Shown in pieces: positions 21,298 through 49,415 of a stretch of 64,000 bases of DNA. Position 1 is the stretch's first letter. Every line of letters begins with the position of its first letter. Location: positions 71,689 to 135,688 of the forward strand of contig JBAZXG010000001.1 in the NCBI GenBank assembly GCA_041660005.1, read 5' to 3'. Position numbers and translations under genes: made by a program. The DNA comes from Patescibacteria group bacterium (GTDB taxonomy: Bacteria > Patescibacteriota > Patescibacteriia > GWA2-46-9). Under the pieces are notes generated by a model, which was given only the letters and a program-made list of their open reading frames with translations, was not told the DNA's origin and did not search any database.

Positions 21298-21330
21298 CAC
21301 AAAATGCCCGCCAGTGGCGGGCATTTTGCA
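21298..21330 (+). terminator. Rho-independent terminator
   Basis: AAAATGCCCGCCAGTGGCGGGCATTTTGCAG. Confidence 0.75.
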
Positions 21331-21380: not shown

Positions 21381-21662
21381 CTAAACTAAATGTTTAGTAA
21401 TGAATGCCCTACCTGACCCCGACTTGAAATACTTCTCAAGAATGAACGCTGTCTTTTTGTCTCTAACACCGATATAAAAAGAAAGCTCCACCGGTAAACG
21501 ACCTTTAGTTGCAGGGACGAAACCTTTTCGATGTCTAGCTATCCTTTCTTTAAGATCTGCGGTGCAACCAACATAATACCCATCCTTACATTTGAGTGAA
21601 TAGATATAGTACATACATGCCCGCTTACTCTCCAAACAATAAATGATAACTGGCTTTGCCAA
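21381..21662 (-). CDS. GIY-YIG nuclease-domain protein
   Basis: IYCLESKRACMYYIYSLKCKDGYYVGCTADLKERIARH matches the GIY-YIG motif layout. Confidence 0.65.
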   Translation of the reverse strand: MAKPVIIYCLESKRACMYYIYSLKCKDGYYVGCTADLKERIARHRKGFVPATKGRLPVELSFYIGVRDKKTAFILEKYFKSGSGRAFITKHLV

Positions 21663-21930
21663 GCCGAAGCTTGAAGAACGAGGATGGCTTTGCCAAGCCG
21701 AAGCTTGAAGAACGAGGATGGCTTTGCCAAGCCGTAGCTATGGCGAAGGATTGTGGGCTGCATCAAACAAACATCTCAGTCCGACTACGCTAAGGCTTCG
21801 TCGTGACAGCCTTCGCTAAACCTAAGTAACTGGCTTTGCCAAGCCGAAGCTTGAAGAACGAGGATGGCTTTGCCAAGCCGTAGCTTGAAGAACGAGGATG
21901 GCTTTGCCAAGCCGTAGCTATGGCGAAGGC
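21641..21930. repeat. Tandem 33-34-bp repeats (TGGCTTTGCCAAGCCGAAGCTTGAAGAACGAGGA) in two blocks of three, abutting the tRNA-Asp 3' end
   Basis: Six copies read directly: 21641, 21675 and 21709 (variant), an 80-bp spacer, then 21821, 21855 and 21889 (variant). The variant unit ...GCCGTAGCTATGGCGAAGG precedes both the spacer and the tRNA. Confidence 0.8.
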
Positions 21931-21931
21931 T

Positions 21932-22009
21932 GGCGGACCCGACCGGATTCGAACCGGCGATCTTCTCCGTGACAGGGAGACGTGTTAACCGGGCTACACC
22001 ACGGGTCCG
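21932..22009 (-). tRNA. tRNA-Asp (anticodon GTC)
   Basis: Minus strand reads CGGACCCGUGGUGUAGCCCGGUUAACACGUCUCCCUGUCACGGAGAAGAUCGCCGGUUCGAAUCCGGUCGGGUCCGCCA. It has a 7-bp acceptor stem, an anticodon loop CUGUCAC, and a T-loop UUCGAAU. Confidence 0.9.
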
Positions 22010-22030
22010 TAAAACGCAGCAACACTATCC

Positions 22031-22387
22031 TTATTTCTTCTTCGGAAGAACTTCCTTCATCACTGCAGCAAACACTTTTGGATGTTCGGCTGCTAAGGTT
22101 GAAAGCACTTTGCGATCGAGCTCAATATTCGCTTTTTTCAAAGCGGCGATGAAGCGCGAGTAGGAAATGCCGTACGGGCGAACTGCCGCGTTCAACCTGG
22201 TCTGCCACAGGGCGCGGAATACCCCTTTCTTCTTTTTGCGATCTCGGAAAGCATGCTGCCCCGCCTTGTTAATGGCGGTCTTAGCCAGCTTAATGCGACG
22301 TTTACGGCTCCACTTGTAGCCCTTAACAGCTTTAAGAATGTTCTTGCGATGCTTGACGTGGCTTACTCCTCGTTTAACTCTTGGCAT
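22031..22387 (-). CDS. rplT: 50S ribosomal protein L20
   Basis: [31 protein letters not shown] matches the L20 N-terminus. Confidence 0.9.
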
Positions 22388-22402
22388 AGTAGTAACTAAA
22401 TA

Positions 22403-22624
22403 TTAGGAATACGGCAGCAGCTGCCGAACATTCTTTTGGATAGTCTTGGAAACGGTGTTGGTGCGACGCTTCTTCTGCGTCATGCTGCTTTCGTCTCGAG
22501 AATTAAAATGAGACTGACCGGCATGCTTGCGTAAAAGCTTGTCGGTTTTTCCCCAGCGACCTTCGGTCTTAGTGCTGCTGAAGCGAACGCGTTTGGCTAA
22601 ACTTTTTCTGGTTTTGAGTTTCAT
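22403..22624 (-). CDS. rpmI: 50S ribosomal protein L35
   Basis: MKLKTRKSLAKRVRFSSTKTEGRWGKTDKLLRKHAG is L35-like. Sits between infC and rplT. Confidence 0.8.
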   Translation of the reverse strand: MKLKTRKSLAKRVRFSSTKTEGRWGKTDKLLRKHAGQSHFNSRDESSMTQKKRRTNTVSKTIQKNVRQLLPYS

Positions 22625-22632
22625 AGTATACG

Positions 22633-23181
22633 TTATGCTTTATCTTCCTCAGCCTTCTTTGGTTTCGCTACCTTGCCGGTAGTATAACAAATAAGCGAGA
22701 GACGACCGCCTTGCTTTTGTAATGGTTGCTCAATGGCTATAGTGTAGTGCTTCCGAAGCTCGCGAAGGAATTGCTCAATCACTTCGGCGGCTAAATCTTT
22801 ATGCTGGTGCTCTCGCCCCCGAAGCTGCAACTCAACTTTGAGCTTGTGCCCATCATCAAGAAACTTACTGGCTTGAGAAATCCGGAGATCGCGGTCGTGC
22901 GTACCGATGCGCGTTGAAAGTCGCACCCCCTTGGTTTCCTGTTTCTTCTGCCGCGCCTTTGCCTTTTGCAATTCTTTATCACGCTGATACTTAAATTGAC
23001 TGAAGTCAATGATTTTTGCAACCGGTGGCTTCGCCAGCGGTGAAACTTCTACGAGATCAAGCCCTGCTTGCTCTGCACGTTCAAAAGCTTCTGCTGTTGT
23101 AACTACGCCGATGTTCTCGTCATTTTCTCCAATCAACCGAACTTCAGGTACATTAATCTGCCGATTGACTCGGTAGACCAG
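22633..23181 (-). CDS. infC: Translation initiation factor IF-3
   Basis: EVRLIGENDENIGVV...LDLVEVSP matches the IF3 N and C domains. The true start is probably a non-ATG codon around 23157-23181 (ATT or CTG). The tracked N-terminal extension to 23310 runs into the tandem repeats. Confidence 0.8.
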   Translation of the reverse strand: MVYRVNRQINVPEVRLIGENDENIGVVTTAEAFERAEQAGLDLVEVSPLAKPPVAKIIDFSQFKYQRDKELQKAKARQKKQETKGVRLSTRIGTHDRDLRISQASKFLDDGHKLKVELQLRGREHQHKDLAAEVIEQFLRELRKHYTIAIEQPLQKQGGRLSLICYTTGKVAKPKKAEEDKA

Positions 23182-23261
23182 AGCAGCTGATTTTACTTCA
23201 CGCGGTCGATAGGTTCTACGCAAGGGAAAGAAATAAAATAAATAAATTCGTCTGTGCCAAC

Positions 23262-23345
23262 CGTCGCTTATAGAACGAAAGTGGCTTGCCAGCCGTAGCT
23301 CACAGAACAAGGATGGCTTGCCAGCCGTAGCTCGAAGAGCGAAGG
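23262..23345. repeat. Two further tandem ~33-bp repeats of the same family (TGGCTTGCCAGCCGTAGCTC...), abutting the tmRNA 3' end
   Basis: Same family as the 21641-21930 repeats, with the GCGAAGGCTGG junction variant again next to the RNA gene. Confidence 0.7.
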
Positions 23346-23390
23346 CTGGTGCTGTGCACCGCGTAGCCCCGAGTATAACGAGGGGCGAAG

Positions 23391-23776
23391 TGGTGGAGAT
23401 GAGGGGAATCGAACCCCTGTGTGAAAAGTGGAACCCGAGAAAGACTACAGGTATAGTCGCCGTTCAATTCTATGCTCGTCGAAGTCCGACGACGACGCGA
23501 CGAGTTGATTTCCGGTAATACTCAGTGGCAGTGTCGGAAAGCCACCACCTTGAGCGCCGAATAATATGGCACCCCGGACGCTCTCATTCGGCGAGAGAGC
23601 AGGGATGGTTCTCGGTTTTATTAGGCGAGAACGGGTACAAAGCTCAGCGACGCAAAAGCGTTCTGAACCTTGCGAGCCAATGAAGTGGCATGTATCTGTT
23701 TGAGAGAGATTTAGGAGCTATCTCACGCTCCACCTGCTTTTTCGGAAGGAACTTTCCGTCGAATCCAAAGCATCCC
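23391..23776 (-). ncRNA. ssrA: tmRNA (SsrA)
   Basis: 5' GGGGAUGCUUUGGAUUCGACGG and 3' GGGGUUCGAUUCCCCUCAUCUCCACCA tRNA-like ends. Internal candidate tag reading frame ...GCG UCG CUG AGC UUU GUA CCC GUU CUC GCC UAA UAA. smpB is immediately adjacent. Confidence 0.85.
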
Positions 23777-23783
23777 CAGATGC

Positions 23784-24215
23784 TTAACGCACGCGGCGCA
23801 TCATGCGCTCACGTACACTTCGGTCGAGATCGCGTTTCTTTATTACTTCGCGTTTATCAACCGCAGATTTACCCCGAGCAAGCCCAAGAGTGAGTTTGAC
23901 GAGGTGGTTGCGAGTATACACGGATAAAGGCACCAGTGTCAAGCCTTTTGTTTCTAAAAGACCCAAAAGTTTGCCTATTTCACCACGATGCAAAAGCAGT
24001 CGCCGTGTGCGCCGCGGATTGTAGTCCGGCAACGGCCCAGCCTTCATGTACGGCGGAATATAAGCATTGATAAGCTCGGCCAGAACCTGACGATGACCAC
24101 CCGACGATGCGCCAGAACGTACCCGAACATAAGCACCTTTCAAGTCCCCTTGTCCGGCCTTCAATGATTTTACCTCAGGACCGGTAAGTTCAATACCGGC
24201 CTCCCATGTTTCCAA
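23784..24215 (-). CDS. smpB: SsrA-binding protein
   Basis: GIELTGPEVKSLK...LLLHRGEIGKLLG... is typical of SmpB. Adjacent to ssrA. Confidence 0.88.
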   Translation of the reverse strand: METWEAGIELTGPEVKSLKAGQGDLKGAYVRVRSGASSGGHRQVLAELINAYIPPYMKAGPLPDYNPRRTRRLLLHRGEIGKLLGLLETKGLTLVPLSVYTRNHLVKLTLGLARGKSAVDKREVIKKRDLDRSVRERMMRRVR

Positions 24216-48575: not shown

Positions 48576-49415
48576 TTAAAAGCCGACGTAGGAAAGCCCT
48601 CCCGAGGTTCCCCCACTAGCTGTGGCCGCATCGACTGTGTCGATGACAAGGCCACGCGACTCTTCACGTACCAGCAGCGGGTCAGCACCCTCCAGCTGGT
48701 ACCCCGGCAATGTGTAGCCGGGTGTCTTGAAGTCCCGGAAGAGTGTCGCCGCATGCGTCAACATGGCGAAGATCGCATCCGGTCCCGAGAGCACGAAGCC
48801 CTCCGACAGCGTTGCCATCTGCTCACGTTGCGCGAGCACTGAATACCCTCTCAGGGCTTCCGGGAAGTACAGGCCGAAGACTGGCCCACACGTAAGCCGC
48901 TCGAACAACAGCTCGAGTCGACTTTCAGGCGCGAGAGAGACTTGGGACCCCAGCATGGGAAAGTACCGATACACTGACCGGCTTGGAAACCGCAAGGAGT
49001 ACGCATGGGCGACCCCCTGGAACATCGTTTCCATCCACTCACCGTGATCTCGAAGCTGCACCTGTGGGATGGCCCATGGAAGACAGACTCCGTTCAGAAT
49101 CCCCGCGGTCGCCCGCTGTTTTCCTAGCTCGAGTCGTAGAGCCGTGCAGTGATCACCCGTTTCGGCCGGGAGGGGCATCTCAACGTATCCCCTGAAAGCC
49201 TCGGTCGCTGTCCGCCATCCCCCGAAAGCGTCGCTCGCTGTCCGGTACAAAGCCGGATAAAAAATGCTCGACGGGGTCAGCTGAAGTCGACGGTCAGCGG
49301 GTTCCGCTTTACCCTGCATCCCAGGAGGCGGGATACGCACACCGGACTCGTCGAAGTCCCCACCCAGATAAACGCTCTTGAGCGGCATCTCTGTCGCGAA
49401 ATAATGTCGTCGCAT
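48576..49415 (-). CDS. Hypothetical protein (high-GC island 4)
   Basis: About 60% GC, 279 aa. GC-rich hairpins downstream at 48489-48521. Confidence 0.45.
   Translation of the reverse strand: MRRHYFATEMPLKSVYLGGDFDESGVRIPPPGMQGKAEPADRRLQLTPSSIFYPALYRTASDAFGGWRTATEAFRGYVEMPLPAETGDHCTALRLELGKQRATAGILNGVCLPWAIPQVQLRDHGEWMETMFQGVAHAYSLRFPSRSVYRYFPMLGSQVSLAPESRLELLFERLTCGPVFGLYFPEALRGYSVLAQREQMATLSEGFVLSGPDAIFAMLTHAATLFRDFKTPGYTLPGYQLEGADPLLVREESRGLVIDTVDAATASGGTSGGLSYVGF

Follow-up and report, generated by a model that had tools for sequence, protein, structure and literature searches.

Two arrays of short, GC-rich tandem repeats abut the 3' ends of a tRNA-Asp gene and of the transfer-messenger RNA (tmRNA) gene in the metagenome-assembled genome of a Patescibacteria group bacterium (lineage GWA2-46-9). 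They lie within a stretch of 64,000 nucleotides (nt) of contig JBAZXG010000001.1 (positions 71,689 to 135,688), referred to below as the window, where smpB, tmRNA, infC-rpmI-rplT, tRNA-Asp and a small gene for a GIY-YIG nuclease follow one another in this order on the minus strand (Table 1). Tandem Repeats Finder (TRF) delimits two arrays, at 21651-21919 with a period of 34 and at 23255-23333 with a period of 32, which bears out the tandem repeats described in an earlier note made from the sequence of this DNA alone. The 20-mer GGCTTTGCCAAGCCGWAGCT is present in 6 copies, as compared with 0.01 expected by chance. We call the repeat the E element; this name, and the names E1 for the form that follows the tRNA or tmRNA, E2 for its inverted form and X for the 5' block GCCTTCGC, were coined in this analysis. 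Across the window, a covariance model of the E1 family matches both clusters and nothing else, with E-values from 8e-13 to 6e-3.

Behind tRNA-Asp the repeats form two blocks of three units, as the earlier note had proposed. On the transcribed strand the encoded CCA of tRNA-Asp is followed, with no gap, by block A with units of 32, 34 and 34 nt, then by an 80-nt segment and by the three further units of block B; the two blocks represent a 110-nt duplication that is 96% identical. The small hairpin GGCTT-GGCA-AAGCC was found in all units, every unit in the window has a GCCA end, and the units are contiguous and without spacers, so the note was right that this is not a CRISPR. Canonical copies are the unit at tRNA-Asp and the second unit past tmRNA, while in the others only the 5' half has degenerated and the 3' half is kept. 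In A2 and A3, for example, the X half is degenerate (TCCTCGTTC) and the Y'-tail half AGCTWCGGCTTGGCAAAGCCA is intact. Unit B1, which was not part of the training set of covariance model R1, is matched by that model with E=3e-6.

The 80 nt between the blocks (21751-21830) are not filler, since an inverted member of the family, E2, lies inside them. It is preceded by a linker and an X' sequence whose final G (21807) is at the same time base 1 of E2; as in canonical cassettes elsewhere, X' is a perfect complement of (A)GCCTTCGC. The E2 of the window reads GUC-a-CGAC / GAA / GC-cuua-GC / GUA / GUCGGAC and is predicted to fold into 3 bp, a 1-nt bulge, 4 bp, a 3x3 GNA internal loop, 2 bp and a tetraloop. 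An ATG is found 4 nt past its GGAC and 8 nt past the GUC that corresponds to the canonical GGC. The short sequence ATGTTTGTTTGA is likely a vestigial gene start of three codons, judging from its location at the canonical cassette position of the GIY-YIG start. The layout of the window is a rearranged version of the canonical one, with E2, a likely start remnant and a duplicated E1 block placed ahead of an intact gene. An earlier interpretation of the 80-nt segment as a decayed copy of tRNA-Asp, based on the common sequence CTGTCACG, was dropped after X' and E2 had been identified in it. The succession of E2, truncated GIY-YIG start and new E1 at window positions 21751-21778 has an analogue in another locus (L154), and in both the duplication junction T/CCTTCGC (the slash marks the junction) falls at the 5' edge of E1. 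The recurrence of a breakpoint at this boundary hints at a site-specific break there.

Repeats are also present on the tmRNA side, but in place of the two copies counted in the earlier note there are three recognisable units plus a fourth, diverged one. The note had placed the end of tmRNA at about 23346 by reading a 'CTGG' as its CCA. That sequence is an internal CCAG; the actual CCA is at 23391, 44 nt upstream of the former placement. The 44 nt in between resemble a diverged unit (E1a; CUUC-GCCCC...GGGGC-UAC-GCGG-UGCACAGCACCA), which we provisionally assign to the E1 family on its sequence. The remaining units, E1b to E1d, are located within the leader of infC. In a comparison of copy number among relatives, the only contigs that encode the same proteins were identical to the window.

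The E element family across bacteria

We scanned one genome per species with a pattern derived from the two window variants, from which the X half was left out. The scan yielded at least 120 loci in Acidobacteriota, Alpha- and Gammaproteobacteria, Planctomycetota, Verrucomicrobia, Myxococcota, Armatimonadota, Patescibacteria and others, and the E1 carriers among the loci listed include isolates of Bradyrhizobium, Sphingomonas, Reyranella and Rhizobacter. By our own estimate a few dozen of the matches could be expected by chance; a chance origin is excluded by genomic context, i.e., by X, by the CCA and by the proximity of a tRNA. Directly behind the CCA, E1 has the layout GCCTTCGC-(variable stem-loop)-GCTWCGGC-TGGCAAGCCA, which can be expanded to GCC-TNC-GC-(stem-loop, 4 to about 40 nt)-GC-TWC-GGC-T(N)GGCAAGCC. 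On the tRNA-sense strand the core is GCC-TNC-GC-(stem-loop)-GC-TNC-GGC, followed by the tail hairpin TGGCAAGCC; on the opposite strand it reads GCC-GNA-GC...GC-GNA-GGC.

The association of the repeats with stable-RNA 3' ends, which the earlier note had suspected, extends across phyla: E1 mostly abuts the CCA of a tRNA or tmRNA. Among the loci listed, the X block was found upstream of 105 of 130 cores, with CCA directly before it in 91 of these 105; for 71 of 129 matches a complete tRNA or tmRNA gene, of 14 different types in all, lies within 150 nt upstream; and X stands immediately 3' of 82 of 134 tRNA and tmRNA genes, the rest being without it. E1 is therefore frequent, not universal, among the tRNAs of a carrier genome. 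Most other genomes have a single E1 per tRNA. Tandem or segmental duplications of the modules recur nevertheless, in six loci (L002, L088, L109, L141, L143 and L154) and in the window.

Many other E1 matches follow partial 3' halves of tRNA genes that lack the 5' half (L095, L034, L001, L035, L044 and L088), and one of these loci (L095) has two such copies 5.4 kb apart. These loci look like the distal junctions of genomic islands, at which E1 would have stayed with the displaced original 3' end. In five loci of Acidobacteriota (L099, L111, L059, L080 and L105), E1 and E2 fill the spacers of a thr-tyr-gly-thr tRNA operon and are also located directly upstream of tuf, the gene for EF-Tu. From this position, E modules are tolerated within an essential and highly expressed transcription unit. 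In Patescibacteria / Magasanikbacteria (L078:7700-7900 and L063:4000-4250), E1 sits in frame inside ileS, at the same site after ...SVHLExWP; the insertions add AFAEATAGKP (twice, 60 nt apart) or ACAKATAWQA and are preceded by a CCA/CCC codon. Two other ideas were abandoned. The tRNA-Ala and tRNA-Ile cases are not rRNA spacers, since no rRNA was found in 20 loci, and a CCA target-site duplication was dropped because the base after GCC is variable in the set of loci anchored on the nuclease protein (see below).

No Rfam 15 family covers the element in the window or in 38 other loci, whether the gathering threshold or E<=10 is applied, and only tRNA and tmRNA were found in these searches. No match to E1 was found in 5,426 E. 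coli genomes. In the literature searched, a tRNA-end variant with a nuclease was not found, two surveys of repetitive extragenic palindromes (REPs) did not contain the motif, and a search with the sequence string returned only pGEX primers.

The hairpin is strongly supported by covariation. In the variable stem 98.7% of cells are paired and 41 are changed on both sides, values that none of 500 shuffles reached. X covaries with its partners, ACC occurring with GGT and GAC with GTC. The outer pair of E2 is C:G in 37 of 73 copies and T:A in 31, and its bulge is a purine in 67 of 73. Of 412 stem pairs, 403 are Watson-Crick, 4 are G-T and 5 are A-C in a symmetric count; this near-symmetry is uninformative as to which strand folds and argues against RNA-type wobble, and the scarcity of wobble differs from what structured RNAs typically show. 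TNC is the loop triplet of 130 of 133 X halves and of 36 of 38 inner loops, and the other strand hence reads GNA. In DNA, mini-hairpins of the type d(GCGNAGC) have an exceptional stability, as do tandem sheared G-A pairs. Because wobble is nearly absent and the triplets read GNA, these features point to E as a DNA hairpin, whose GNA face would be on opposite strands in E1 and E2.

The linked GIY-YIG nuclease gene and its relatives

The earlier note had raised the possibility that the GIY-YIG gene is related to the repeats, and the motif and the gene do co-occur across phyla from either starting point, which is the strongest result of the analysis. When anchored on the motif, 13 of the 120 loci listed contain a GIY-YIG homologue, which is directly downstream and on the same strand in at least 9. 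For the reverse approach, proteins with the C-terminus YLKSGSGRAF were aligned and metagenomic loci were fetched by protein similarity alone; the evaluable set comprises 63 metagenomic homologues with at least 250 nt of upstream sequence. A tRNA or tmRNA ends 56-391 nt upstream on the same strand in 51 of these 63, CCA plus X is found upstream of 49, and E modules are present at 61. The modules have a clear polarity, being located upstream at 42 and 33 of 63 loci and downstream at just 3 and 1 of 75. Near genes of this KSGSGR type (195 kb, 82 genes) the E pattern of the family gives 110 matches where 1.9 are expected. Most E1 copies, on the other hand, are orphans that are remote from any such gene.

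The recurrent cassette consists of the tRNA with its CCA, E1, a linker, GCGAAGGCTG, E2, about 9 nt and the ATG. Its E2 is an inverted E, GCC-GNA-GC-loop-GC-GNA-GGC, set within an outer stem that bears a one-base purine bulge. The 3' arm of E2 is often GCGGAGGC, so that a Shine-Dalgarno sequence forms part of the stem and has a constant spacing to the start codon. E2 carries GGAGG, and its end lies 9-10 nt before the start codon in about 25 of 45 cassettes.

In the window the conserved protein starts at ATG 21614, the start called by NCBI/JGI, 36 nt past the last repeat unit. The overlap of gene and repeats described in the earlier note does not exist: only a mechanical, TTG-extended open reading frame (ORF) reaches to 21662. 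PF01541 spans residues 1-67 of the 77, and the catalytic Y, Y, R, H and E are conserved in alignments of the family. The AlphaFold2 model (pLDDT 93.4) is a bare GIY-YIG core without a separate DNA-binding domain, and the nearest structures found with Foldseek are UPF0213 BH0048 (1zg2) and the structure-specific nuclease Slx1 (7cq3), with a TMq of 0.67. The family is very large, since clustering at 90% identity gives at least 7,990 clusters, and its proteins are uniformly 79-85 amino acids (aa) long and bear generic names only. Cultured carriers include Reyranella soli NBRC 108950, Rhizobium lusitanum, Alterisphingorhabdus coralli and Geotalea toluenoxydans. The family has no match in 72,556 plasmids or 50,697 phage genomes, PADLOC gave no match, and nothing significant was found in libraries of defence systems or phage proteins. 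In IMG/VR, KSGSGR-type GIY-YIG genes occur on just two of 2.9 million viral contigs (L203 and L204).

The closest parallel is Ssn, a single-domain GIY-YIG nuclease of about 94 aa (Chenal et al., Nat Commun 2025, PMC11893778). Ssn binds the NTS/SRM hairpin repeats that flank its own gene and are scattered through the genome, and it cuts single-stranded DNA (ssDNA) only, about 3 nt upstream of the hairpin, with no action on double-stranded DNA (dsDNA) or RNA (PMC11893778). At least one flanking repeat accompanies 71% of Ssn genes and 42% have repeats on both sides; membership is defined by E<1e-10 to N. meningitidis SsnA or by CDD cd10448; and the authors draw a comparison with REP-RAYT (PMC11893778). 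Both systems combine a single-domain GIY-YIG protein of 80-95 aa with gene-linked, GC-rich hairpin repeats of 20-50 nt that have extra copies elsewhere, both have GAA-type loop centres (...CCCGCGAAGGCGGG... in NTS and ...GCGAAGGCGGGC in E), and both invite a reading as a REP-RAYT-like 'domesticated nuclease'.

As a proxy for SsnA in the homology comparison we used a very large family of GIY-YIG proteins of ~95 aa (VYILAS...GTLYIGVTSDL...REKxLKKWNRAWK) whose genes have the NTS CGTCATTCCCGCGAAGGCGGGAATCCAG on both sides. Three of its loci were inspected (L205-L207), in Guyparkeria, Magnetospirillum and a metagenome-assembled genome (L207, ENA ERZ25072670), which places the Ssn architecture outside Neisseria; there was no tRNA near any of the three. 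The E-associated nuclease is a distant homologue of this family and clearly separate (29% identity and E=2e-7 with hhalign, probability 93.5%; pairwise BLASTP E=7e-6 over 31 residues, which would miss the E<1e-10 of the Ssn definition), and the C-terminal third differs, being YLKSGSGRAFAKRHL in the E family and KKWNRAWKxELIExxNPxWRDLY in the other. The E element is not an SRM. The SRM consensus HGTCWYN(0-2)YYVSBRHN(0-5)WNVSBRGN(0-2)RNCYNB gives 1 match as compared with 2.0 expected in the 195 kb around the 82 genes, and 0 in the window. Whereas the Ssn layout is NTS-gene-NTS with inverted repeats, E modules occur on the 5' side only, and the E family keeps to tRNA and tmRNA genes and their CCA ends, while neither tRNA, tmRNA nor CCA is mentioned in the Ssn paper (PMC11893778). 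In outline, then, the E system resembles Ssn/NTS, and it differs in motif, in polarity and in its strict CCA-end address.

Other known systems share parts of this picture. REP-RAYT systems consist of extragenic palindromes, often as inverted doublets, with a linked gene, and are chromosomal. Like the REP/BIME-RAYT and REPIN systems, E comprises short imperfect extragenic palindromes and inverted doublets (here E1/E2), is not plasmid-borne, and has more copies than the one nuclease-type gene that is linked to it and bordered by repeats of its own. Unlike them, it has a GIY-YIG partner and not a Y1/HUH transposase, it lacks a GTAG/CGTC head and has the triplet G-N-A with N free, and it is restricted to tRNA and tmRNA 3' ends and conserved across phyla, while REPs are species-specific. 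Downstream of tRNA-Tyr at the E. coli tyrT locus there are 178-bp tandem repeats that re-duplicate the 3' end of the tRNA. They too start at the 3' end of a tRNA gene, but they are confined to one locus and copy the tRNA's own 3' end, whereas E1 shares just the CCA with the tRNA. SegB of phage T4, a free-standing GIY-YIG homing endonuclease, has two domains and about 220 aa, is encoded by the phage and cuts dsDNA. A report describes a GIY-YIG gene among tRNA genes and a nuclease-driven segmental amplification of the tRNA region (PMC13096335). The embedding among tRNA genes and the segmental amplification are shared with the locus described here, where the protein is instead an 80-aa core without a DNA-binding domain, is chromosomal and has dedicated hairpin repeats. 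Rickettsia palindromic elements (RPE) are also found in or next to stable-RNA genes (PMC3733652). Similar to these and to other MITE-like repeats, E is a small palindrome able to sit in frame in an essential gene (ileS); unlike RPE, it is about 32 nt long and not 100-150, it has a strict preference for CCA ends, and it has a linked nuclease gene. Neither terminal inverted repeats nor target duplications could be shown for E.

Neighbouring genes and feature coordinates

The coordinates of the features are given in Table 1. A promoter-like site in smpB (23942-23913, minus strand; TTGACA-18-TATACT, 11/12 matches) lies ~136 nt upstream of the 5' end of tmRNA and could, from its sequence, drive tmRNA. 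The perfect inverted repeat that follows the GIY-YIG gene likely serves the entire minus-strand unit as its terminator. Close to the conserved N-terminus of IF3, infC offers neither ATG nor GTG in frame, and its called start, mapped from the gene call on contig L121, is TTG 23223, just past a T-rich run. Autoregulation of IF3 typically involves unusual start codons. L121 itself, a short-read Logan contig of the same strain (SRR18595301), ends 57 nt past rplT, inside tRNA-Asp and beside the array; the repeat array appears to break short-read assemblies.

A locus in Komeilibacteria (L002:5800-7400, minus orientation) has the order E1-E2, smpB, tmRNA, two further E1-E2 pairs as a ~140-nt tandem duplication, a GIY-YIG gene and infC, which closely parallels the order tmRNA, E1 array and infC of the window. 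Since this syntenic locus has a GIY-YIG gene between tmRNA and infC, the window may have lost or relocated a nuclease gene formerly beside tmRNA. A separate 30-nt repeat of 1.9 copies (ATCCCCCGAAAGCCTCGCTCGCTGTCCGCC, 89% matches; TRF) is present at 49187-49244.

Table 1. Repeat units, genes and other features around the two arrays of the window
Feature	Position	Strand	Basis
Perfect 14-bp inverted repeat after the GIY-YIG gene	21300-21328	.	Inverted-repeat search
GIY-YIG nuclease gene, KSGSGR-type, 77 aa, single domain	21381-21614	-	Pfam PF01541 1.3e-10; NCBI MFA5954014.1
E1 units B1-B3, 32/34/34 nt	21719-21750, 21685-21718, 21651-21684	-	Duplicate of block A
Likely vestigial GIY-YIG start, three-codon remnant ATGTTTGTTTGA	21763-21774	-	Spacing
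E2, inverted E element	21779-21807	-	Fold matches canonical E2; weak reverse-strand covariance model match 21774-21816
Linker and most of X' (GCGAAGGCT)	21808-21830	-	Sequence, compared with cassettes elsewhere
E1 units A2 and A3, 34 nt each	21865-21898, 21831-21864	-	Covariance model R1 E=0.006
E1 unit A1, canonical, GCCTTCGC-CATA-GCTACGGC-TTGGCAAAGCCA	21899-21930	-	Covariance model R1 E=5e-10, unit in training set
tRNA-Asp(GTC), CCA encoded, A76 at 21931	21931-22008	-	ARAGORN; Rfam RF00005, 65.9 bits
infC-rpmI-rplT operon, between the two repeat clusters	22031-23223	-	ORFs; Pfam labels on L121
E1d, degenerate, 34 nt, ends 25 nt before infC TTG start	23248-23281	-	
E1c, 32 nt	23282-23313	-	TRF; repeat family
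E1b, canonical, 33 nt	23314-23346	-	Covariance model R1 E=8e-13, in training set; TRF
E1a, putative diverged E1 abutting tmRNA CCA	23347-23390	-	Hairpin in fold; partial covariance model match 23362-23390, E=2.8
tmRNA (ssrA)	23391-23777	-	ARAGORN; Rfam RF00023, 115 bits
smpB	23784-24215	-	ORFs; L121 gene labels

Proposed system and rival explanations

With moderate confidence, we interpret the repeats of the window as locally amplified copies of E, the repeat half of an Ssn-like or REP-RAYT-like pair of nuclease and hairpin repeat that is targeted to CCA ends. Related Ssn nucleases act on NTS/SRM repeats as ssDNA hairpins, and for this reason we propose that the E-associated nuclease would recognise E folded as a hairpin in single-stranded DNA and cut beside it. 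The strong transcription of tRNA genes would often expose single strands carrying E. Nuclease and repeats would form a self-maintaining pair comparable to REP-RAYT, the nuclease maintaining and spreading E at CCA ends, and repeated cutting and repair could produce tandem and segmental duplications such as those in the window. The solo E1 copies at other tRNAs would then be non-autonomous members. The nuclease gene would be read through from the tRNA promoter, and E2 in the mRNA, with the Shine-Dalgarno sequence in its 3' arm, would keep translation of the nuclease weak.

Several points weigh against this interpretation. Spread to new tRNA genes, which share little homology with one another, would require strand transfer, and a GIY-YIG nuclease alone cannot carry this out. 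As no plasmid or phage vector is visible for spread between phyla, strong functional constraint and vertical inheritance of the system could equally account for element ends that are nearly identical from phylum to phylum. The local array may be partly decayed, since the second and third units of each block have lost the complementarity of X and Y' and E2 is not adjacent to the present gene. Finally, E is certainly transcribed in pre-tRNAs and in the tmRNA-infC leader and may have a role at the RNA level.

The last point leads to the main rival, a role in pre-tRNA processing, which we nevertheless judge unlikely. E1 would be a structured 3' trailer of pre-tRNAs and pre-tmRNA, serving as an endonucleolytic processing site CCA/G or as an insulator between the tRNA and the mRNA downstream, and the GIY-YIG protein would be a processing factor or a passenger. 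The exact start of E1 at the CCA and on the transcribed strand fits this, as does the ability of the CCA to pair with the tail U(N)GG in 40 of 40 aligned copies. Where elements lie within tRNA operons or in the infC and tuf leaders, they have to be transcribed and afterwards removed; occlusion of the Shine-Dalgarno sequence by E2 is itself an RNA-level feature; and between the RNAs and the genes that follow them there is no promoter-like site. However, G-U pairs are not enriched in the stems (4 G-T and 5 A-C in 412 pairs), many tRNAs of carrier genomes do without the element, it occurs in frame within ileS, and no Rfam family matches it. We know of no GIY-YIG RNase. The only characterised relatives, the Ssn proteins, do not bind RNA (PMC11893778). 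The earlier note had also considered termination signals, an idea contradicted by the occurrence of E elsewhere between co-transcribed tRNAs and upstream of tuf, without U tracts; in the window the one unit flagged as terminator-like is the last of block B, which has a T-run.

The arrays could also be a neutral local minisatellite, in which slippage or unequal crossing-over multiplied one inherited E1 per RNA, with no function for the copies added. The degenerate X half of units 2 and 3, the origin of block B as a 96% segmental duplicate of block A, the single E1 per tRNA in most other genomes and the break of a short-read assembly at the array are all in agreement with such an expansion. We consider it improbable as a full account, because it explains neither the founding copy nor the independent recurrence of duplications in several phyla; it is compatible with the explanation favoured here and not an alternative to it. 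The related suggestion of the earlier note, a minisatellite that has invaded the flanks of stable RNAs, comes close and understates a family that spans many bacterial phyla. Loci of the ToxIN type consist of tandem repeats, a terminator-like hairpin and a small nuclease gene. The window has just this order, with 34-nt direct repeats, a terminator-like hairpin with T-run and a small nuclease gene, so that a ~34-nt repeat RNA might be processed into units that neutralise the downstream nuclease, as in type III toxin-antitoxin systems. This is very improbable given that at least 60 related cassettes have a leader of one E1 and one E2 with no array, that the protein is a GIY-YIG nuclease without PADLOC match and not an RNase of the ToxN/AbiEii type, and that most E1 copies are orphans far from such a gene. 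Decayed or iterated att duplications of islands at tRNA-Asp and tmRNA, the interpretation put forward in the earlier note, would agree with the status of tRNA and tmRNA 3' ends as classic integration sites and with the E1 copies that follow island-junction-like partial tRNA 3' halves in other genomes. Yet the units have only CCA in common with the 3' ends of the tRNA and tmRNA, one and the same element stands behind tRNAs of at least 14 types whose 3' sequences are unrelated, and the part duplicated at island junctions is the tRNA half, which precedes a normal E1, and not E1 itself. No integrase-like ORF stood out beside either cluster when the ORF list was inspected by eye, and we regard an att origin as extremely unlikely.

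Returning to the proposed pair of nuclease and hairpin, a broader and distinctly more tentative possibility is that E and the KSGSGR-type nuclease constitute a widespread, undescribed sister system to Ssn/NTS. It would be devoted to homing or maintenance at CCA ends, with the CCA of the tRNA forming part of the recognition site and the tRNA promoter serving for expression, and through an ssDNA cleavage site at tRNA loci it may control how these loci recombine, take part in transformation or receive islands. Genomic islands and prophages land mainly at the 3' ends of tRNA and tmRNA genes. A conserved hairpin with a dedicated nuclease would, if the interpretation is true, be a new player at these integration hot spots in many phyla. 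It would also extend the Ssn concept to a second family with another motif, another architecture and a precise genomic address, and would offer new enzyme/target pairs for ssDNA tools. For genome annotation, GC-rich E arrays appear to break short-read assemblies beside tRNA genes and their in-frame insertions can be mistaken for coding sequence, while at least 7,990 clusters of ~80-aa proteins now named 'GIY-YIG nuclease family protein', together with the 'intergenic' repeats upstream of them, would gain a context.

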